Assembly (NCBI GenBank): GCA_019057865.1
Contig: JAHLWP010000054.1
Location: forward strand, 1-20,069
DNA: 20,069 nucleotides
Reading direction: 5' to 3'
From: Promethearchaeota archaeon
GTDB lineage: Archaea; Asgardarchaeota; Lokiarchaeia; Sigyniarchaeales; SOKP01
Below, piece by piece: positions 2,954 through 18,099 of this stretch. The notes below the pieces were generated by a model. The model had not been told where the DNA came from. It saw only the letters and a program-made list of their open reading frames with translations, and did no database searches. Every line of letters starts with the position of its first letter. The first letter of the stretch is position 1. Both the position numbers and the translations under genes were made by a program.

Positions 2954-4249
2954 TTAAGAGATACATATTTTATCAAAATCTTTCTTAAGTTGATCACGAA
3001 AATCAGGATGGGCTATATTAATCAAGGCTTTTGCTCGTTGGCGAATTGTTTTTCCACGTAAATTGGCAATACCATATTCAGTAATCACATTATGAACATC
3101 ATTACGTGAAGTGGTTACACAGGCTCCTTCACTTAATTTAGAAACAATTCGACTAATTGTTTTCTTTTTATTTGTTGAGGGAAGTGCTATAATTGATTTA
3201 CCTCCAGGAGATATACTTGACGCACGAACAAAATCAACCTGTCCTCCGACACCAGAGTATTGTTGGTATCCGAGTGTATCGGCGCATACTTGGCCAAATA
3301 AATCTATTTGGAGGGCAGAATTAATAGAAATTAGGTTATTTACTTTCCCTGCAATCATAAGATTATTAGTGTAATCAACAGGATGCATTTCAACATTAGG
3401 ATTATTATCAACAAATTGATAAAGCTTTTTTGTGCCCATTAAGAACGTAGCAATAAACTTACCCGGATTTAGGTTATTACATTTATTTGTTACAACTCCT
3501 TTTTCATATAACTCAACTACTCCATCAGAGAACATTTCTGTGTGAATTCCTAAATCTTTTTTTTCCGTTAGAAATTTCAATGCTGCATCAGGTATCCCAC
3601 CAATACCTAATTGGAGATTTGCTCGATCTGGAACTAATGAGGCAACATTCCTTCCAATATTTTCTTCAATACTGGTGATTTTAGGAAGAGGTATTTCGAT
3701 TAAGGGTCTGTCAGTCTCAACAATATAATCAACTTCAGATATATGAATATAAGCTCCATATGTTCTAGGCATTTGTTTATTTACTTCAGCAATTACAATT
3801 TTTGAGGATTTTGCAGCTTGCATTGTATAATCTACGGATACTCCGAAGCTAAGGTAACCATTCTCATCTGGCGGAGAAAGTTGAATTAATGCTACATCTA
3901 CCGGTAAAATATTATCTCGAAAAAGGCGTGGAATTTCCGAAAAAAATACGGGCGTATAATCAGCTCTCCCTTCCCTAATTGCTTGTCGTGCTCCTGCACC
4001 TGCAAATAAAGAGTTATGGTAAAAATGTTGTTCCATTTCGGGCAAGCAATATTGACATTCTCTTAGAGGGACCATATGAACAATCTCAATGTTGGTTAGC
4101 CGATCTTTTTGTCTAACAAGTTCATCTACTAAGACAATTGGTTCTCCGGCAGCATGTCCAAAAACTACTCTATTTCTTGACTTTATATTTAAGATGGCTT
4201 CTTCTTTAGAGGTAACTTTTCGAGAATAATGGTCGTCCCAATTCTTCAT
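2954..4249 (-). CDS. Acetyl-CoA hydrolase/transferase family protein, 4-hydroxybutyrate CoA-transferase-like (Cat2/AbfT type)
   Basis: Motifs LQLGIGGIP, LGIHTEMFSDG (catalytic Glu), SGVGGQVDF, ITEYGIANLRGK, LINIAHPDFR. SD-like AAGGTG lies upstream of the ATG. Confidence 0.9.
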   Translation of the reverse strand: MKNWDDHYSRKVTSKEEAILNIKSRNRVVFGHAAGEPIVLVDELVRQKDRLTNIEIVHMVPLRECQYCLPEMEQHFYHNSLFAGAGARQAIREGRADYTPVFFSEIPRLFRDNILPVDVALIQLSPPDENGYLSFGVSVDYTMQAAKSSKIVIAEVNKQMPRTYGAYIHISEVDYIVETDRPLIEIPLPKITSIEENIGRNVASLVPDRANLQLGIGGIPDAALKFLTEKKDLGIHTEMFSDGVVELYEKGVVTNKCNNLNPGKFIATFLMGTKKLYQFVDNNPNVEMHPVDYTNNLMIAGKVNNLISINSALQIDLFGQVCADTLGYQQYSGVGGQVDFVRASSISPGGKSIIALPSTNKKKTISRIVSKLSEGACVTTSRNDVHNVITEYGIANLRGKTIRQRAKALINIAHPDFRDQLKKDFDKICIS

Positions 4250-5447: not shown

Positions 5448-5590
5448 AAAGATGCTTTACGTACGTAAAAAACTAATAAATTTTATAAAGTATGATGATT
5501 TCATGGTATATTAAGATTTTTTTACTAATATAGAAAGATCTTTACGTACGTAAAAAACTAATATTATTTTAATAAATAAATGAATATTTA
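5448..5590 (+). promoter_or_regulatory. Tandemly duplicated operator/promoter: two copies of palindrome TTTACGTACGTAAA, each followed by a TATA-like box
   Basis: Identical 24-mer CTTTACGTACGTAAAAAACTAATA at 5455-5478 and 5540-5563 (85 bp period). Perfect 14-bp palindromes at 5456-5469 and 5541-5554. TTTATAAA at 5482-5489 and TTTAATAA at 5568-5575. Lies directly upstream of the DUF2284 ATG at 5620. Confidence 0.7.
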
Positions 5591-5619: not shown

Positions 5620-6405
5620 ATGACGCAGAAACTGATACCTGAAGTTGAGAAAGAATGGTCTAAAATATCTTTCAAATGGCGGAGATTATTACCAAAAAAG
5701 AAAGATAGGCCACCATCTCCAATAAAAATTGAACCTGATGAAAAGATCTTTCTTGAGCTCCTTGAACGATCTAATAAAATCATAAATCAAATAATTATAA
5801 AATCAAAAATTAAAGCTACTGGTCATGCTAAATTAATACCAACAGATAAAATTGTAATAGATCCGCGCGTACGCTGGAAATGTAGAATTCCTGTGTGTTT
5901 TGGTTACGGAACTAGTATAAATTGTCCTCCACATTCTCCAACTACCGAAGAGATGAGAGAAATTGTTAGTAGTTATAATCATGCTATATTAATTACATTT
6001 TATCCACCGACAAAAAATCATATTTTTCCCGGAATTCTTCTCGGTGTCCAGGGAGATGTAAATCTATTAAATCAAATAGTCTCAATGATAGAAGCAGAAG
6101 CAACATACTTGGGATATTATCTTGCTATGGGGTTTAAAGGTGGACCTTGTGTTGGTTGCGGATTTTTTTCTCCAGAATATTTTAAAGACTTAATGCAACA
6201 AAAAAAAATTCCCCCTTGTCCTGTGCTCGATAATCAAATGTGCCGGCAGTATTTAAGAGCTAGACCTTCACTAGAGGCTTGTGGAGTGGATATATTTGCT
6301 ACAGCTGTCAAATGTGGAGAAAAACCACCATTTGTAATTAATCCCGAACATCCAAAGGAATCTGTTCCCTATGTTGGTTGGCATGGTATCGTTTTAATTA
6401 TTTGA
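5620..6405 (+). CDS. DUF2284 family Cys-rich predicted metal-binding protein
   Basis: RVRWKCRIPVCFGYGTSINCPPHSP, GGPCVGC, C-x7-C and ARPSLEACGVDIFAT match the pattern I recognise as DUF2284. Confidence 0.8.
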   Translation: MTQKLIPEVEKEWSKISFKWRRLLPKKKDRPPSPIKIEPDEKIFLELLERSNKIINQIIIKSKIKATGHAKLIPTDKIVIDPRVRWKCRIPVCFGYGTSINCPPHSPTTEEMREIVSSYNHAILITFYPPTKNHIFPGILLGVQGDVNLLNQIVSMIEAEATYLGYYLAMGFKGGPCVGCGFFSPEYFKDLMQQKKIPPCPVLDNQMCRQYLRARPSLEACGVDIFATAVKCGEKPPFVINPEHPKESVPYVGWHGIVLII

Positions 6406-6445
6406 TAATATCTATTATTAAGAGTTGAGAGAGGTAAATTTTATA

Positions 6446-7108
6446 ATGGAAAATACAAGTTTAGAAAATCAGACAAAAACTAAAAATCCTTTATATTATA
6501 TTAATAACGTCATTGAAGCGGTTAGTTCACTCGACTTTTATTCAATGAAAGACACCATAAAACAAGCAATAGATGCAAGAGTACCCATAATCGATATTAT
6601 AAATAAGGGTATTTTAAAAGGATTGGAAGAATCAGGAGAAATGGGGCTTATTTTAGCGGCAGAAGCTCTCCAAGGTGAAATTATATCTATAGATGAGGAA
6701 GATAGAAGAAGATTATACAAGGCTAGGAATTACTCGGGAAAGGTAGTTGTCGGAACAATTGAAGGGGATATTCATAATTTAGGTAAAAATATTCTAATCG
6801 CGTTAATGAAATCTTATGGTATGGATATTATCGACCTTGGAATAGATGTGAAACCTGAAAAATTTGAAGAAGCCGCTCGAATGCCAGATGTTAAAGTTAT
6901 TGGTATATCATATCTTCTTTCTTCAGCGGAACCCTTCATAAAAAGAGCAGTGTCCTTATTAAAAAAAGGAGATTTAGCAAATAAGGTAAAAGTTATTTTG
7001 GGAGGTGCTGCTGCGTCTTATGAATTCACAGAACAAATAAAAGCAGATGCTTACGCAAAGGACGCTTTAGAAGGTTTTAATCTAATTGATAAATGGTTAC
7101 GGAATTAA
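6446..7108 (+). CDS. Methyltransferase-cognate corrinoid (B12-binding) protein, MtaC/MtbC/MttC-like
   Basis: VVVGTIEGDIHNLGKN (DxHxxG base-off/His-on), IDLGIDV, SYL (SxL), ILGGAA, ADAYAKDA, plus an N-terminal helical cap domain. ATG 6446 follows GAGGT and is preferred to TTG 6425. Confidence 0.92.
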   Translation: MENTSLENQTKTKNPLYYINNVIEAVSSLDFYSMKDTIKQAIDARVPIIDIINKGILKGLEESGEMGLILAAEALQGEIISIDEEDRRRLYKARNYSGKVVVGTIEGDIHNLGKNILIALMKSYGMDIIDLGIDVKPEKFEEAARMPDVKVIGISYLLSSAEPFIKRAVSLLKKGDLANKVKVILGGAAASYEFTEQIKADAYAKDALEGFNLIDKWLRN

Positions 7109-7149
7109 GAATAATTAATCCCTTCCTTTTATCTATAAGGGGTACTCAT

Positions 7150-9156
7150 ATGGAGAATAAAAGAAATACCCTCATTTTGGAACCAATATCTAAACGAATC
7201 AATGTTGTTGAAGGTTCAACTGTTTATGAATCGCTTTTAGCGTTAAATTTACCTATAGGTGCCCTATGTGCAGGTAAGGGAACATGTGGAAAATGCGTAA
7301 TTAGTGTTTTAGATCCTAATCCAAAAATTTCAGAACCATCAGAACAAGAAAAAAAAATATTAAACAATCAAAAAATATTAGAAGGTTATAGGTTAGCATG
7401 TCAAACTAAAATTTTAGGAGATTTAAGAGTATTTTTAACTGACTCATTAATTTCGAGAGGAATTAGAATTTTAGTAGATGCTGATTTAGAATCTCTCGGA
7501 ATAAAAAATAATGATAAAACTAACCCCGGAATTACTTCACTGCTTTGTAAGATCACCTCTGCGGATTTAGGTAATCCAAAAAATGATTTATCTAGATTAT
7601 TTGAGGACGTAATAGAAAGAAATAGTAATTATAAGATAAATGAAAATCACACCTTATTTCATGTAAATGATATTCTATATAACACTATTAAAAAATTACC
7701 ACATATTATGAGAAAAGAAGATGGTCTTGTTACAGCTTTTTTTAGAAAGCTCTCATTGGAAGATCCATGGACTCTTCATGATATTGATGTCGGAGATAAA
7801 AATAATAATCTTTTTGGATTAGCTATTGATATTGGAACTACTACTCTTGTTGGATATTTAATTTGTTTAAAAACAGGCGAAATTGCAGCGGTTTCTGCTA
7901 TGTTAAATCCTCAAGTGGCTATCGGTGAAGATATTATTTCAAGAATTACCTATATCGTAAAAAATAATGCAATTCATAAAGCAAAAGAATTGGTGATTAA
8001 TGCTTTAAATCATATACTTGAGGATTGTTGTGATAAGGCTCACATTTCTATTTCGTGTGTTAAAGATATTTCTGTTGTAGGAAATACAGGAATGCATCAC
8101 ATATTTTTTGGAATAACCCCAGAATTTTTAGCTGTTTCACCTTACATTCCAGTATTTAAAGCCCCAATTAATGTAAGTGCGGGTATGCTTGGAATAAAAT
8201 GTAATCCCAATGTAAATGTATATTCTCCTCCTGTTATTGCTGGCTACGTAGGAACAGACACAATTGGATGTATAATCTCATCTAAAATCAATACATACGA
8301 TAAATATTCTCTTTTAATTGATATTGGTACTAATGGTGAACTTGTGTTGGGAAATAATGAAGGATTAGTTACATGTTCATGTGCTGCTGGTTCGGCTTTG
8401 GAGGGTGCTCATATTTTATATGGTATGCGAGCTTCTGAAGGAGCAATAGAATCAGTCAAAATTGATAGAAATACTTTGGAACCTTCAATAGACGTAATAG
8501 GAAACATAAAACCACTTGGATTGTGTGGTTCAGGGCTCATTGACATGATAGCAGAAATGCTGAAATCAAATATCATCACGCGTGCGGGAAAATTTAATAT
8601 CAAATCAGAAAAAGTAATGAAACATCGTCGTGTTGTAAAAAGGGAAGATAAATACCATTATATTATATATAAAGCTGAATGGGATAATGAACAATATCAA
8701 AAAAATATTAATGATAATAACATTGAGGAAATCACCATTTCTCAGAAAGATATTCATCAGCTTCAACTAGCGAAAAGTGCATTTTTATCTGCAGCGAATT
8801 TATTACTTAAAATGGAACATAAAAAAAAAGAATCTCTTGAACAAGTTCTTTTAGCAGGAGCCTTTGGAACTTATATCAATAAAAAAAATGCCGCTTTTAT
8901 TGGTTTATTCCCTGAGGTTGAACAAAACTCCATTTTCCAGATTGGAAATTCAGCAGGAATGGGAGCACAATTATTTATAAAAGATATTGAGCAAAGATAT
9001 CTAGCAAATAAGATTGCCTATGAGATTAAGTATAGAGAAATTGCATCATTACCATCATTTCAAAAGGAATTCACTTTTTCTCTTTATTTTCCTCATTATA
9101 ATCTTGACAGATTCCCTCTAATAAAACAAGAATATGATGAAATTCCTTTAAAGTAA
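7150..9156 (+). CDS. ATP-dependent reductive activator of corrinoid proteins (RACo/AcsV type, ASKHA ATPase with N-terminal [2Fe-2S] ferredoxin)
   Basis: CAGKGTCGKC...RLACQ [2Fe-2S] domain, plus AIDIGTTT, GEDIISRI, VVGNTGMHH, IDIGTNGE, CAAGSALEG, GLCGSG, LAGAFG and GNSAG. Start reassigned to ATG 7150. Confidence 0.92.
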   Translation: MENKRNTLILEPISKRINVVEGSTVYESLLALNLPIGALCAGKGTCGKCVISVLDPNPKISEPSEQEKKILNNQKILEGYRLACQTKILGDLRVFLTDSLISRGIRILVDADLESLGIKNNDKTNPGITSLLCKITSADLGNPKNDLSRLFEDVIERNSNYKINENHTLFHVNDILYNTIKKLPHIMRKEDGLVTAFFRKLSLEDPWTLHDIDVGDKNNNLFGLAIDIGTTTLVGYLICLKTGEIAAVSAMLNPQVAIGEDIISRITYIVKNNAIHKAKELVINALNHILEDCCDKAHISISCVKDISVVGNTGMHHIFFGITPEFLAVSPYIPVFKAPINVSAGMLGIKCNPNVNVYSPPVIAGYVGTDTIGCIISSKINTYDKYSLLIDIGTNGELVLGNNEGLVTCSCAAGSALEGAHILYGMRASEGAIESVKIDRNTLEPSIDVIGNIKPLGLCGSGLIDMIAEMLKSNIITRAGKFNIKSEKVMKHRRVVKREDKYHYIIYKAEWDNEQYQKNINDNNIEEITISQKDIHQLQLAKSAFLSAANLLLKMEHKKKESLEQVLLAGAFGTYINKKNAAFIGLFPEVEQNSIFQIGNSAGMGAQLFIKDIEQRYLANKIAYEIKYREIASLPSFQKEFTFSLYFPHYNLDRFPLIKQEYDEIPLK

Positions 9157-9219
9157 GAATGCGAGAAAAAATTAATAAGATTATTTTTACGTTAGGAATT
9201 ATTTATTTACAATAGTAAA

Positions 9220-9230
9220 TTTTTTTTTTT
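9220..9230 (+). terminator. Possible archaeal oligo-T terminator after the corrinoid activator gene
   Basis: T11 run 64 bp downstream of the RACo stop, but only 8 bp before the next ATG, so its role is uncertain. Confidence 0.25.
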
Positions 9231-9238
9231 AAAAATCT

Positions 9239-11062
9239 ATGATAAAAACTGGAAAAGGTAAAATTTCGAAGAAAAAATCGGGTAACCGTGCATATGATAG
9301 TTATTGGGTTTATATCCCCAGTAAGATTGCTAAAGATAGCGCTTTTCCATTTAGAGATAAAGAAGAAGTCGTGATAGAATTAAAGGGTGAACACTTGGAA
9401 ATTCGAAAAATATATAACCTAAGTGACCTAACAAAAGTCTATGATATTGAGGATGCTACACTGCCAAAAATAATTGAAAGTAAAGCACTGATTAATAAAG
9501 ACAAACCATTTATTTATTATCGTGATGAGGTTTATACTTATGAAGAGGCAAATATAATTTCAAATCAGATAGCTAATGGACTTATAAAACAAATTAAAAA
9601 ATTAAAATTGAAAAATCCTCATATATCCTTGATATTTCCAAATAATCCAGAGGCTCTTTTTTGTTGGTTCGGCATTGTAAAAACTGGTAGCGTATTTGTA
9701 CCAATAAGTTACTTATTAAAAAAGAATTTACTGGAATATGTATTGAAAAATAGCGATTCAGAAATTTTAATTATCGATTATATATATCTTGCGAATGTTG
9801 AGGAGATTTACGAAAATTTACCCAAAATTAAGAAAATTTTTATCCAAAACGCACCAAATGATTATAAATACGAGGATAAATATGCTAGTTTTTCAGAAAT
9901 CTTTTCTGAAAATTTAGAGAAACCAAATATTCAAATGAACAGTTTCCATCCTCTCGAAATATCATATACATCAGGGACTACAGGAATACCAAAAGGAGTG
10001 TTGTATAGAAATTATTACACCTTGTCAGGAATTAGTGTAGGAAGACAGTTGGAAGATTTAGGATTTGGCAGTAATATTAATAAATTTTATTGTCCCTTGC
10101 CATTATTTCAAGGATTAGAACGATATTTCTTGATAATTCCAATAATGTATCATAATGGATCAATAATAATCGTAGAAAAATTTGATGTTTCAACTTTTTG
10201 GAGTGATATTGGAAAATATAAACCTGATGGATTTTGCTATTATGGAGCACACTTGGCAATGTTGGTAAATCAAACACCGTCAAAAATTGATAGAAACCAT
10301 TCGATTAAATATGCATTTGGAGCTGGAGCCTTAAAAAAGATATGGGAAACCTTCGAAAGAAGGTTTGGGATTCAAATAATTGAAATGTGGTCTCTTGTTG
10401 AGGGAATTGGTTTTACTATAAATAACGTAGGTTCCAAAGGAGGAAAACTAGGTTCTATCGGAAAGGCAGCACGGGGCGTTGAAATTAAAATTGTTGATTC
10501 AGAAGGAAAAGAACTTCCTCCTGGACGAGATCATATCGGTGAAATCTGTGCAAGAACAAGACTCCCCTTTGAACTTGAATACTATAACTTACAAGAAGAG
10601 ACAATAACAAGAAAAGGAGAAGATCGATGGGTTTACACGGGCGATTTTGGATATGCCGATCATGAAGGGTTCATATATTACTTAGGAAGGAAATCAGACA
10701 TGATTCATAGAGAAAAGGAGATATTTTTTTCGGGGGATATCGAAATAGTCGCAAATTCACATCCACTTATAGTCGAAAGCGCTGTTTTTGACGTTTTTGA
10801 TAGCAAATCCTCGGAAAAATATTTAAAAATTTGTGCTGTAATTCAAAAAGGAGCTTCGATTACCCATAAAGAATTTCACAATTTTCTAAAACAAAACCTG
10901 GCCTATTTTATGGTTCCAAGATATATAGAATTTAAAAAAGAATTACCAAAAAATGCAAACGAATTAATTCAGAAATTTATACTTAGAAAAGAATGGGAAT
11001 CAGGAAAATCATTAAAAAATAGCTACGATACGAGGAGTACTCTTGAAGAGAAGAAGAAGTAG
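9239..11062 (+). CDS. AbrB/MazE-like N-terminal domain fused to AMP-binding acyl-CoA ligase domain (CaiC-like, degenerate catalytic motifs)
   Basis: aa 1-57 SYWVYIPSKIAKDSAFPFRDKEEVVIELKGEHLEIRK fits a swapped-hairpin pattern. Ligase motifs YTSGTTGIPKG, WVYTGD, YLGRKSD and YFMVPRYIEF are present. The A10 motif reads PKNANEL. Confidence 0.85.
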   Translation: MIKTGKGKISKKKSGNRAYDSYWVYIPSKIAKDSAFPFRDKEEVVIELKGEHLEIRKIYNLSDLTKVYDIEDATLPKIIESKALINKDKPFIYYRDEVYTYEEANIISNQIANGLIKQIKKLKLKNPHISLIFPNNPEALFCWFGIVKTGSVFVPISYLLKKNLLEYVLKNSDSEILIIDYIYLANVEEIYENLPKIKKIFIQNAPNDYKYEDKYASFSEIFSENLEKPNIQMNSFHPLEISYTSGTTGIPKGVLYRNYYTLSGISVGRQLEDLGFGSNINKFYCPLPLFQGLERYFLIIPIMYHNGSIIIVEKFDVSTFWSDIGKYKPDGFCYYGAHLAMLVNQTPSKIDRNHSIKYAFGAGALKKIWETFERRFGIQIIEMWSLVEGIGFTINNVGSKGGKLGSIGKAARGVEIKIVDSEGKELPPGRDHIGEICARTRLPFELEYYNLQEETITRKGEDRWVYTGDFGYADHEGFIYYLGRKSDMIHREKEIFFSGDIEIVANSHPLIVESAVFDVFDSKSSEKYLKICAVIQKGASITHKEFHNFLKQNLAYFMVPRYIEFKKELPKNANELIQKFILRKEWESGKSLKNSYDTRSTLEEKKK

Positions 11063-11178
11063 AAGAAGGAGATTATAGATTATAATCTTTGTTTTTTGTT
11101 TCCCACTTATCCATGAAGAATTTTAACAAGGTTCTGTTTCAATGAGACTTTTTAAACATTATCAACTTGATATTTATT

Positions 11179-11724
11179 ATGGTAATTACGTTATTTGATC
11201 AACTTGATAAAAATCAATTAAAAGAACTACTAGTTAAATGTTGGATGACTCATGATGGCTCCTGGTTTTATAATTGCGCCCGTGAATTAGGTATTGATAC
11301 TGCTAACAAACTAAATAAAGCAGCTATTAAAACTCTTTCAGTAATTGAAATGCAGCGAGTAAAAAAGGCGATAGGAATGGAGAACATAAAAATCAAAACA
11401 TTTGAGCAGTTAAAAGATTTTATTACTAATGCTTTTAGCGTATTAAAAGCGGATTTTATGGACTTTGAATATACATTCCCTGAAAATAATCGGATACATT
11501 GGGAAATGAACCGATGTTTCGCCTACAAAGGAATGGAAATGATTGGACTCAACAAACAATATGAATGTGGCGTAATATACCGTGTTAGTTGCTGGTTGGA
11601 TGCTCTCGGTATAAACCATACAATTGAGCCTGAAATCGATAAATGCTTATTAAATTCTCATAAAAAATGTTATGGGGATATTATTCTGGATAACTTCCCT
11701 TCTAACATTTCGGTCAAATATTGA
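11179..11724 (+). CDS. DUF6125-like protein (V4R/ATC-hydrolase-like Cys-containing ligand-binding fold)
   Basis: KCWMTHDGSWF...GIDTANKLN N-terminal motif, followed by spaced Cys residues (RCF, YEC, KCL, KCY). ATG 11179 is preferred to TTG 11167. Confidence 0.65.
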   Translation: MVITLFDQLDKNQLKELLVKCWMTHDGSWFYNCARELGIDTANKLNKAAIKTLSVIEMQRVKKAIGMENIKIKTFEQLKDFITNAFSVLKADFMDFEYTFPENNRIHWEMNRCFAYKGMEMIGLNKQYECGVIYRVSCWLDALGINHTIEPEIDKCLLNSHKKCYGDIILDNFPSNISVKY

Positions 11725-11840: not shown

Positions 11841-13784
11841 TTAAGACTTAATTTTGATGGAAACAGCTATGACTCCTTTCATTGAGCCCCCTCCCCCTCC
11901 AGGTGGTTTGAAGATAAAAGGATATGGAAAAAATCCCCCTTCATCATCATCTTTTTTATGTCCACACCAATCACAGATGTCTTGACCATTCGGAATTATT
12001 TTTCCACAGTAAGAGCATCTCGAATGACTCCTCTGAATTTGTTTCATAATCTTTTCTTTAATAAGTAATTTCTGTTCCTCATTTAATTCATTTAAAGGTA
12101 TATTCTTCATAGCTTCTAAACCTCTCCATCTTGATATATTAGGTATATAAACGTCTTTTCCTTCAAGTTTGTTTTTAATTACATGAATACAATCTAAAAT
12201 ATCTTTACCTATTTTTTCATCAACTTGGTTTAAGAGATTTTCTAATGTGGATTTCAAAGTATATAAAAATTGGGGGTTGTTGTATCTTGAATAAGGTCTA
12301 AAAGTGGGTATTTTTGGGTCTATTTGAATACTCGAAAATAAGATATTTTTACCCTCAGGAAGCTTTAGAATTTGTAATAAAATGTCTTCAAGCACTGTTG
12401 GAAACTTCGAAACGCAAGATCTTAAAAATTGAGACAATATTTTAAGTTCAGAGGAGATATTCTTAATTAGGTCAGGCGATTCCAAAATAGTTTTGAATTC
12501 TGAGGGACTAAAGACTTGTATATATCCTTGATTAAGAAGATACTGAACTACAGAAGGGTATCCGCTTTCGAGTCTTAAAGCAATTTCTTCTTTATATACT
12601 CTCCTTGCCTTGGGATCTCCTGCCTTTGTCAATTCTCTTAACAATGGAAATGAAATATTGCTCATTAGAATCCTTGTGTCGTAGTCATGCTCAACCCATG
12701 CTTGAATGTTTGAACAATGTCCCCAAAATTCCTGCTCTGGGGTAATATCATGTCTCTGATTTGGTACAGGTGCTGCCATGGGACCCCTTACGATTCTATT
12801 TTGGAATACATGTTTATTATACAATTTAGCTGCTTCATCTATAGAATCAACCTCATCGTATAAGGGTACATCCTCTCTTGGTATGTTTAAGATTAAACGG
12901 ATACACTGAATAAACCTCTTTCCGTTTACAAAAATAAAAGTTTTTCCATTCACCAATTTAAGAGTTATATATTGATTAATTTCTTTTTCAATTGTTGGAG
13001 TTGCTTTACCTATATTATATTGATTTATATTAACATTTAACCAATCAACACCAAAAGCATTCTTTTTAATAGGTTTTTTAGGTTTTTTTGAAATTTTATC
13101 TGGTTTTAATTTAATGAAAACAATTAATAAGATCAAACCGATTGTCCCTAAAATGATACAAATTATAATGCCAGCTATGCTTAGACTTTTCAAGATTGTT
13201 GGGTCTATCCCCTTATAACTTAATTCTATCCATGCTATATCGTTGTTACTTGAAGCACCTTCTTTTGAGTATCCTTGTATATATCCATCTCCCTCTCCCC
13301 CTCTTCCATATAAACAAACACTTACTCCATCGTTGATAATTTGGTCTGATCTTAAAGGAATTCTAAAATCAAAACCGTCACATAAAATATGACCTCTATA
13401 AACACTCTTATTCGGTTTATTGTTCCAGGTTATAGTCATTTCATCCCAACTCTCATAGGTAAGATTCGCTCCTACGTCTACAACACTTGAACCATAATCG
13501 AAATTTACTATAATATTTGCCTCTATCCACCTATTGGGAAGAGAAGAAATATTAAAGTAATAGAAAGCTTGCACCTTCCTGGCATAAAAATTCCCTACGC
13601 GGAGATAATTATCATTGCCATAATTATTATTTGGATCATTTTCATATACACTTGCATCTTTATTAATATTAATCGTTAATTCATATCCCCGAAAGTGAGC
13701 CGCTATTAAAAAAAGAGTAAACATGAAAATTATTAACAGAATTAATAATATGAATCCAATCCGTCTTTTAAGTTGATGATTCAT
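11841..13784 (-). CDS. Membrane protein: signal anchor, DNRLRE (CBM96-like) ectodomain, TM helix, Lokiarchaeal EFWGHCSN domain, Zn ribbon
   Basis: Hydrophobic aa 9-29; DASVYENDPNNNYG and WDEMTITWNNKP (DNRLRE hallmarks); second TM LSIAGIIICIILGTIGLILLIVFI followed by a Lys-rich stretch; INQYITLKL...SIDEAA...PEQEFWGHCSNIQAW...FPLLRELTKAGD; CSYC-x10-CDWC. Confidence 0.8.
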   Translation of the reverse strand: MNHQLKRRIGFILLILLIIFMFTLFLIAAHFRGYELTININKDASVYENDPNNNYGNDNYLRVGNFYARKVQAFYYFNISSLPNRWIEANIIVNFDYGSSVVDVGANLTYESWDEMTITWNNKPNKSVYRGHILCDGFDFRIPLRSDQIINDGVSVCLYGRGGEGDGYIQGYSKEGASSNNDIAWIELSYKGIDPTILKSLSIAGIIICIILGTIGLILLIVFIKLKPDKISKKPKKPIKKNAFGVDWLNVNINQYNIGKATPTIEKEINQYITLKLVNGKTFIFVNGKRFIQCIRLILNIPREDVPLYDEVDSIDEAAKLYNKHVFQNRIVRGPMAAPVPNQRHDITPEQEFWGHCSNIQAWVEHDYDTRILMSNISFPLLRELTKAGDPKARRVYKEEIALRLESGYPSVVQYLLNQGYIQVFSPSEFKTILESPDLIKNISSELKILSQFLRSCVSKFPTVLEDILLQILKLPEGKNILFSSIQIDPKIPTFRPYSRYNNPQFLYTLKSTLENLLNQVDEKIGKDILDCIHVIKNKLEGKDVYIPNISRWRGLEAMKNIPLNELNEEQKLLIKEKIMKQIQRSHSRCSYCGKIIPNGQDICDWCGHKKDDDEGGFFPYPFIFKPPGGGGGSMKGVIAVSIKIKS

Positions 13785-17273: not shown

Positions 17274-17693
17274 ATGAATCTTGGAAAAATTAAAAAAGCT
17301 ATAAGGAAAACATTATCGGAAAAAGAAGAGATAATTGCCTCTTATTTATATGGCTCGTTTATAAATCGTAAATATTTTAGAGATCTTGATGTTGGATTAT
17401 TAATTAATGATACATATAAACCCAATGTTTTATATGAAGCTAGAATATCGGGAGAATTAGAAATTGCTCTAAAACCTATATTCGATAATTTTAAAACCAT
17501 CGATGTCAGAATATTGAATGACAAACCTTTAAGCTTTTTGTTTTCGGTTCTAAAAAATTCAGAATTGATTTTTTCTAAGAATGAGTCAAAAAGAGTTAAA
17601 TTTGAAGCTGATATCATTAAAAAATATCTTGATATTAAACCCCATTATGAATTATATAATAAGATGCGGAGGTTAAGGTATGCAAATAGATAA
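17274..17693 (+). CDS. mntA: Minimal nucleotidyltransferase (MNT) antitoxin, type VII TA
   Basis: YLYGSF-x7-DLDVG and IDVRILND Pol-beta-type motifs; overlaps the downstream HEPN gene by 14 bp. Confidence 0.88.
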   Translation: MNLGKIKKAIRKTLSEKEEIIASYLYGSFINRKYFRDLDVGLLINDTYKPNVLYEARISGELEIALKPIFDNFKTIDVRILNDKPLSFLFSVLKNSELIFSKNESKRVKFEADIIKKYLDIKPHYELYNKMRRLRYANR

Positions 17694-18099
17694 GAATATA
17701 ATTCAAGGGAAAATTGATATAATTGAGAAAGATCTTAACTTCCTAAATGAATATAAGGATAAAGAGGTAGAAGATCTTTTAACAAGTTATAAAGATATCC
17801 AAGCTGTAAAATATTCTCTTTTTGAAATTATTGAAGCTTCAATTGATATGGCGTCTCATATTATATCAGCAAAAGGACTTAAAAGACCTGAAAGTTATGC
17901 TGAAATGTTTGAAATCCTTGGTAAACAAAATTTAATTAATATGAATTTAAGTAGAAAGTTATCCGAAATGGCTAGATTTAGAAATATTTTGGTTCATAGT
18001 TATGCTGAAGTAGATAATTCCAAAATTTTAAACTATGTTAAGGAAGAATTAAAAGATGTTGAGGATTATATTATAAATCTATTAGAATTAATTAAATGA
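17680..18099 (+). CDS. hepT: HEPN (DUF86) ribonuclease toxin, type VII TA
   Basis: IEASIDMASH and FRNILVHSY (R-x4-H-x-Y, including the Tyr adenylylated by MntA in characterised systems). Confidence 0.9.
   Translation: MQIDKNIIQGKIDIIEKDLNFLNEYKDKEVEDLLTSYKDIQAVKYSLFEIIEASIDMASHIISAKGLKRPESYAEMFEILGKQNLINMNLSRKLSEMARFRNILVHSYAEVDNSKILNYVKEELKDVEDYIINLLELIK

Follow-up and report, generated by a model that had tools for sequence, protein, structure and literature searches.

The question raised by this locus is why an archaeon should carry, in one reading frame, a small domain of the AbrB type joined to an acyl-CoA ligase (ANL) fold, and whether such a protein could be a transcription regulator that senses its signal through an enzyme scaffold. 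The locus lies on contig C59 of a 4.26 Mb Promethearchaeota genome (99.7% complete), and by the window we mean the whole stretch of DNA that was analysed, 20,069 nucleotides in length. Translation of the window gives an uninterrupted open reading frame of 607 amino acids at 9239-11062 (+), present in one copy in the source genome; the N-terminal peptide quoted in the original prediction corresponds to its residues 6-57. The features that matter for the argument are collected in Table 1.

Table 1. Fusion gene, predicted target operon and candidate control elements, in positions of the window
Feature	Position	Strand	Remarks
Perfect palindromic site	5456..5469	.	26 nt before start of the 5482 TATA-like box; well matched in about half of loci
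TATA-like box	5482..5489	+	Predicted; 52-61 nt before proximal site in 22/22 loci
Candidate tandem operator of corrinoid operon	5521..5554	.	Weak site 5521-5534 and perfect site 5541-5554, 20 bp apart
Second TATA-like element	5567..5574	+	23-26 nt from start of proximal site in 14/22 loci
DUF2284 Cys-rich predicted metal-binding protein, first gene of predicted target operon	5620..6405	+	
Corrinoid (B12-binding) protein with His-on motif	6425..7108	+	
RACE/RACo (AcsV-like) reductive activator of corrinoid proteins	7093..9156	+	True start probably about 20 codons later
Weaker site	9186..9199	.	Exactly 20 bp upstream of the strong 9206 site
Strong palindromic site	9206..9219	.	Ends 19 nt before fusion-gene ATG; candidate autoregulatory operator
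Swapped-hairpin (AbrB/MazE/SpoVT-fold) domain, residues 1-58	9239..9412	+	Predicted to form a homodimer; strands 1 and 2 joined by a basic loop that contains Gly
Linker helix and CaiC-like ANL domain	9413..11062	+	Pfam/NCBIfam matches, motif alignment

According to the original prediction, it would count against the idea if the fusion were unique to this contig, an artefact of assembly or of a frameshift. It is not, as the same architecture is found across many genomes. A search with no more than the N-terminal 70 residues finds 34 clusters at 90% identity, every one of which has an ANL domain, and because of this recurrence the AbrB-ANL fusion is real, neither a chance product nor an assembly artefact. 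The search for the same architecture across Asgard genomes, which the original prediction had proposed, gave matches to the N-terminal profile in 56 of the 161 genomes of the class, nearly always in frames of about 600 amino acids; outside the class, 3 of 239 other genomes of the phylum match, in short stand-alone frames only. That the frame is an artefact of assembly, of a frameshift or of the start codon, or else a pseudogene in decay, might be argued from the few relatives that are split or broken (L120, L122, L123), yet the same in-frame architecture recurs in dozens of independent assemblies from several sources and dN/dS is well below 1 in both domains of the fusion protein; in our opinion this explanation deserves practically no credence.

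The named relatives of the fusion protein come mainly from Promethearchaeota or Lokiarchaeota metagenome-assembled genomes. Copies that are 58-91% identical also occur in records titled Hodarchaeota, Odinarchaeota, Thorarchaeota or Hermodarchaeota (L005, L010, L016, L021, L022, L031), and these labels may be wrong, given that the search of the phylum returned the fused form within this class only. Broken family members (L120, L121, L122, L123), one with stops inside the N-terminal domain (G032), one 62-aa stand-alone domain (G053) and two genes split into 160+434 (G008) and 326+272 (G034) amino acids were also encountered. In a tree of the ANL parts of 61 fused and 44 unfused proteins (a quick method, with a midpoint root), the fused proteins form a single clade with an SH-aLRT of 100, separate from the unfused ligases. 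According to the scheme that we propose, the fusion would have arisen once in this Asgard class (Lokiarchaeia/Promethearchaeia), from an archaeal AbrB-fold domain and a CaiC-like acyl-CoA ligase.

What is the N-terminal domain? Residues 1-65 match no Pfam or NCBIfam model, PF04014 and TIGR01439 included, and when the N-terminus by itself was searched directly with HMMs, against PDB sequences and by ESM features, nothing was returned. Among 101 aligned N-terminal homologues, PF04014 (MazE_antitoxin) matches 34, weakly and at best with E about 1e-4, and TIGR01439 matches 12, also weakly; compared as an alignment with PDB sequences, the family finds MazE at E 0.8-1.2 only. The structural comparisons say more. 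An AlphaFold monomer model of residues 1-62 (pLDDT 87) has the order strand-strand-helix-strand-strand, with strands at 8-13, 20-25, 44-49 and 52-57 and a helix at 28-31, and this, together with the search of 48,161 chains by VIA-align, in which AbrB-fold chains (SpoVT and AbrB among them) are the top 10 of 13 matches with Z 2.5-4.7 and unrelated chains score Z 2.1, supports the AbrB/MazE/SpoVT-type N-terminus that had been read from the sequence. The proposed check by Foldseek was less clear-cut: its best match, MazE, is not significant (E 1.3), although nearly all of the matches listed are MazE, VapB, AbrB, Abh, C56 or C68. In the ESM Atlas the matches include unnamed archaeal proteins (TM 0.78-0.84) and an AbrB/MazE/SpoVT cluster (TM 0.61), and a 52-member Promethearchaeota cluster of the AbrB-ANL fusion itself is returned as well.

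The AlphaFold dimer model, also part of the original proposal, gave the expected swapped-hairpin dimer. It scores 0.52, compared with 0.00 for the best control, with runs agreeing in at least 95% of contacts and pLDDT of at least 73, and the modelled cross-chain contacts (strand 1 with strand 3', strand 2 with strand 2', strand 4 with strand 4') are the expected pairs. The mark used for such models is reached by 20 of 30 solved homodimers and by 1 of 23 single chains, counts that hold only roughly, and the pass may stem from likeness to solved AbrB and MazE dimers, in which case it supports the fold and not the binding. The model of the full-length protein is poor (pLDDT 62). Each of these lines is weak when taken singly; all of them agree, and they indirectly support an AbrB-type swapped hairpin. 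With a profile of the N-terminus 197 representatives are recovered, most of them stand-alone proteins 55-90 amino acids long. These appear as a large unnamed AbrB-fold family with a nearly invariant Pro...Asp-x-x-Phe-Pro-Phe signature, barely detected by Pfam, at least one member of which is named from Bathyarchaeia.

The remainder of the protein was described in the original prediction as a full CaiC-like ANL domain. Indeed both subdomains are present, as Pfam AMP-binding (residues 85-440, E 7e-51, 173.6 bits) and AMP-binding_C (residues 501-574, 31.7 bits) both score above their gathering thresholds, while the best NCBIfam matches, including PRK06155 (263.3 against a cut-off of 722) and CaiC PRK08008 (221.6 against 651), are all below cut-off, and the nearest unfused ligases are about 30% identical. 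A PhoU domain sought in the fusion protein with Pfam and NCBIfam gave no match. The word "full" needs some refinement, however, as the original prediction overlooked the missing catalytic residues. With motif positions assigned against the motif table of PMC8388817, four of the seven scored catalytic motifs are kept: the P-loop (243-253), the A5 Glu (E388), the A7 Asp (D469) and the A8 Arg (R484) are retained, whereas the A4 His is replaced by Q291, the A8 Gly by K493 and the A10 Lys/Arg by L576; the position of the A5 Tyr is occupied by W384. The A10 Lys is the key catalytic residue, and in a characterised ligase an A4 His mutant is 500-fold down (PMC8388817). K579 was considered as a stand-in for the A10 lysine and rejected, since normal ligases also have this residue, the second basic one in the A10 motif.

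The comparison across the tree points the same way. All seven motifs are kept by 44 of 44 unfused proteins and by 3 of the 61 fused ones, most of which keep two to four. The A8 Gly is found in 44/44 unfused and 17/61 fused proteins, the A4 His in 44/44 and 15/61, and the A10 position is Lys or Arg throughout the unfused set; in 33 of those 44 (L044-L083) it is Arg, not Lys, with all other motifs intact, so that, judged by alignment, this unfused CaiC-like subfamily already departs from the textbook motif and these controls are themselves uncharacterised relatives. The deepest fused branch, L109 (43% identical), has every motif intact, including the A8 Gly-Glu-Asn and an A10 Arg, and because of that the fusion seems most likely to have preceded the catalytic decay. 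At the same time the ANL domain itself is not decaying and is kept under selection, its dN/dS being 0.07-0.18 compared with 0.16-0.26 for RACE.

These observations bear on the possibility of a bifunctional trigger enzyme, in which the ANL domain has kept its acyl-CoA ligase activity, if perhaps at a slow rate, and DNA is bound in step with its catalytic cycle. The intact P-loop, E388, D469 and R484 and the purifying selection are what one would expect of it, as are the complete motifs of the basal L109 and an A10 residue that is already Arg in most unfused relatives. Nevertheless, three catalytic positions are jointly replaced in the fusion protein, with no substitute for the A10 lysine in K579; 51 of the 61 fused proteins have Leu, Phe, Glu, Tyr, Met, Gln or Thr at position 576, and other fused branches have lost P-loop residues, R484 or D469. 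We consider a trigger enzyme improbable. The ANL domain of the fusion protein is probably a catalytically impaired pseudoenzyme, with which partial activity would still be compatible in view of the retained P-loop, E388, D469 and R484. We hold with good confidence, on the basis of its motifs, that it would not turn over a substrate and would be retained by selection as an input domain.

If the protein is a regulator, its neighbours should tell what it regulates, and a possible link to the adjacent corrinoid operon had been suggested from the outset. In 27 of 41 loci the fusion gene comes after RACE, in 23 after the corrinoid gene and in 22 after DUF2284, and a close fusion gene is present in 30 of the 34 genomes that have a close DUF2284 orthologue. 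This synteny and the shared palindrome described below strengthen the link. The idea of a regulated operon needs some refinement, as the family adjoins other carboxylate and acyl-CoA genes as well as the corrinoid operon: CoA-transferase subunits are near the fusion gene in 9-13 of the 41 loci, and distant paralogues have as neighbours CoA-transferases, thiolases, acyl-CoA dehydrogenase, hydroxyacyl-CoA dehydratase and esterases, and also flavin and molybdopterin oxidoreductases and a family-5 ABC binding protein. Since no toxin gene adjoins the fusion gene, an interpretation as a toxin-antitoxin system was rejected.

Several further observations on the neighbourhood can be recorded here. The corrinoid protein and RACE belong to an operon (5620-9156) without a recognised methyltransferase. 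DUF2284 has eight Cys including a CxxC, occupies the first slot in 22 loci and is highly conserved, with a dN/dS of 0.08-0.15; it may be the missing methyl-transfer or metal-binding component, and in the literature searched DUF2284 and corrinoid are co-mentioned only in a selenoproteome review. An acetyl-CoA hydrolase/transferase gene (2954-4249, -) lies near the cassette, in a position that is not conserved in relatives, and a DUF6125 gene (11167-11724, +) directly 3' of the fusion gene is found there in four close loci only. Farther away are a protein with a membrane anchor, a CBM96 domain and a zinc ribbon at its C-terminus (11841-13784, -) and, from translation only, two 139-aa frames (17274-18099, +) resembling a minimal nucleotidyltransferase and HEPN/DUF86, as in toxin-antitoxin systems of the MNT-HEPN type. 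A CoA-transferase pair (83% identity) and a CdhC-like/CooC-like pair, which flank the cassette in relatives, lie elsewhere in the source genome (G000:C68:43165-45750 and C3:32988-34562) and have no high-scoring operator.

A further argument for regulation comes from a 14-bp palindrome, TTTAC-N4-GTAAA, a candidate operator not defined in the original prediction, which occurs three times in the window (at 5456, 5541 and 9206) where 0.10 would be expected; the two regions that had been proposed for gel-shift experiments, 5448-5590 and 9160-9238, are exactly where it occurs. With at most one mismatch allowed, DUF2284 has it upstream in 21 of 22 loci and the fusion gene in 17 of 32, compared with about one in shuffles, and of 27 distant paralogues in unrelated neighbourhoods 20 are preceded by it, the basal L109 included, compared with 0.19 in shuffles; all these counts span related genomes and so overstate independence. 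It is nearly absent from other genes of the corrinoid-cassette loci, it also marks a few recurring neighbours of distant paralogues, and it is absent before DUF2284 in two related loci that lack the RACE and fusion genes and where the contig continues. A clear site in front of the fusion gene has been lost in several close relatives (L019, L020, L022, L023, L041).

How far does this regulon extend? When a matrix for the tandem sites was trained with the source genome and the two relatives nearest to it left out, the two promoters of the window took first and second place in that genome (34.7 and 28.1 bits), well above the next site (18.3 bits), and because of this the predicted regulon is local, comprising two promoters. 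A global regulon was rejected, with 10 perfect copies in the source genome compared with 7-17 for other spacers, and with palindrome matches in 160 of 161 genomes. Since such genome-wide counts are uninformative, the evidence for the palindrome rests on position and conservation. As separate observations, the perfect sites at 5456 and 5541 are 85 bp apart (85-87 bp in most relatives having both), about eight helical turns, a spacing that would suit DNA looping. In a clade of paralogues (L091-L098, L099, L102) the palindrome is found ahead of a small protein without annotation and of a family-5 ABC solute-binding protein, and a molybdopterin oxidoreductase and a flavin oxidoreductase are present too in several of the loci; this would be a second predicted regulon.

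It may be asked whether the palindrome is owned by another regulator, with the AbrB-fold domain binding DNA without sequence preference or having some other role. AbrB itself binds varied sequences (PMC4022651), and a winged-HTH gene is found near the fusion gene in 10 loci. On the other hand, the site precedes the fusion gene across the tree down to the basal L109, whatever the neighbours are, no other gene is common to these loci, and the winged-HTH gene lacks the palindrome in the nine loci tested. Another owner is therefore, in our opinion, very improbable. Co-conservation of domain and site makes it very likely instead that the regulator itself is bound here: two N-terminal domains would form the modelled swapped-hairpin dimer, each dimer would bind one 14-bp palindrome, and with a distance of 20 bp between two sites, a pair of dimers would sit on approximately the same face of the DNA.

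The sign of control can be judged in part from positions. In most close relatives 16-23 nt separate the end of the strong site from the fusion gene's ATG, and since this leaves no room for a promoter behind the site, it fits repression of the regulator's own gene. For the operon, with transcription from the canonical TATA-like box at 5482 the tandem sites would fall just downstream of the start site, which is repressor-like. The second TATA-like element has about the offset from the proximal site that the first box has from the 5456 site, an activator-like geometry. Between ligand-relieved repression and activation, the arrangement of sites slightly favours repression. A sigma-70 promoter scan was set aside, as it does not apply to archaea. 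We are fairly confident that the regulator would repress its own gene and would also control the DUF2284-corrinoid-RACE operon.

What the ANL domain would sense is a more difficult matter. In our scheme it would bind a carboxylate or its CoA thioester, possibly together with an adenine nucleotide in the retained AMP pocket, and movement of the C-terminal subdomain would change the hold on the tandem operator; we give this ligand class and this switch about even chances of being correct. RACE is an ATP-dependent protein. This dependence would agree with a regulator that acts on these same sites but whose ANL domain reads the adenylate state only (AMP/ATP), or is an oligomerisation or docking module without a small-molecule ligand, and so would the fact that the best-kept residues of the fused clade form the adenine/ribose pocket (W384 in 59, E388 in 60, D469 in 58 and K252 in 60 of 61 proteins). 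Against it, the acyl-pocket positions hardly vary inside a paralogue clade, whereas clades with different neighbours have different residues there, as one would expect if the ligands were pathway-specific, and the regulon appears local, with its two promoters. A sensor of adenylates alone, or a mere docking module, thus has a small likelihood in our judgement, and we return to the carboxylate or acyl-CoA. In active ligases the C-terminal subdomain moves by 140 degrees (PMC8388817).

Taken as a whole, the scheme of a one-component transcription regulator with an ANL-derived input domain, acting by tandem-operator control, seems likely to us. A wider proposal is more tentative, and we consider it possible rather than probable: that this is a transcription-factor family with an ANL-fold sensor, in which the C-terminal domain's rotation has been reused as an allosteric switch, and which diversified in Lokiarchaeia to give paralogues that differ in acyl pocket and regulon, forming a series from a still-active L109 to pseudoenzymes.

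Why this family deserves attention is easy to illustrate. In the literature searched, which was incomplete for subscription papers, we found no AbrB-ANL fusion, so that the family is undescribed there, and no transcription factor with an ANL-fold sensor. An operator and a regulon have been predicted for very few transcription factors of Asgard archaea, and the present one comes with exact candidate sites. If the hypothesis is true, the ANL fold joins the enzyme scaffolds that have been reused as input domains of regulators, and the identity of the ligand would give a lead to the substrate used by the unexplained corrinoid operon, a matter that bears on the diet of Lokiarchaeia.

Among the known systems, SpoVT of Bacillus subtilis has a C-terminal second domain that is GAF-like. 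The N-terminal fold is the same as here (PDB 2w1t; Z 4.2, rmsd 2.1 over 48 residues), and both proteins have a second domain, in our case an ANL fold of about 540 amino acids. Compared with SpoVT, AbrB, MazE and VapB, the present N-terminus belongs to an unnamed archaeal subfamily with the Asp-x-x-Phe-Pro-Phe signature and no adjacent toxin gene. The archaeal C68, C56 and Sso7c4 are also swapped-hairpin dimers, recovered as structural matches (5itj, Z 4.7; 7xi6, Z 4.0; 3o27), and C68 binds two sites at its own promoter (PMC5569661, PMC3159460); these proteins are stand-alone, without a sensor domain, and the C68 motif differs from our palindrome. With the CaiC/PRK06155-like acid:CoA ligases of the ANL superfamily (PMC8388817) the fusion protein shares the two-subdomain ANL architecture with its P-loop, A5 Glu, A7 Asp and A8 Arg; it differs from them in the replaced A4 His, A8 Gly and A10 Lys/Arg and in the added, predicted DNA-binding module at the N-terminus.

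Closest in its working is BzdR of Azoarcus sp. CIB, which likewise has a DNA-binding N-terminus followed by an enzyme-derived domain that has lost its activity, sensing by the AbrB-ANL protein itself being predicted. BzdR's own DNA-binding domain is of the HTH-XRE type. Its effector is an inactivated shikimate-kinase-like domain, by which it senses benzoyl-CoA (PMC3602430). Pfam and NCBIfam searches found no such domain in the fusion protein, the effector region of which is ANL only; with an AbrB fold and an ANL fold there is no homologous module in common, and the fusion protein is analogous to BzdR rather than a member of its family. For BzdR the intermediate between enzyme and regulator was built in the laboratory (PMC3602430), whereas here a motif-intact fused relative, L109, occurs in nature, and with it a natural series from a motif-intact basal fusion to its eroded descendants.
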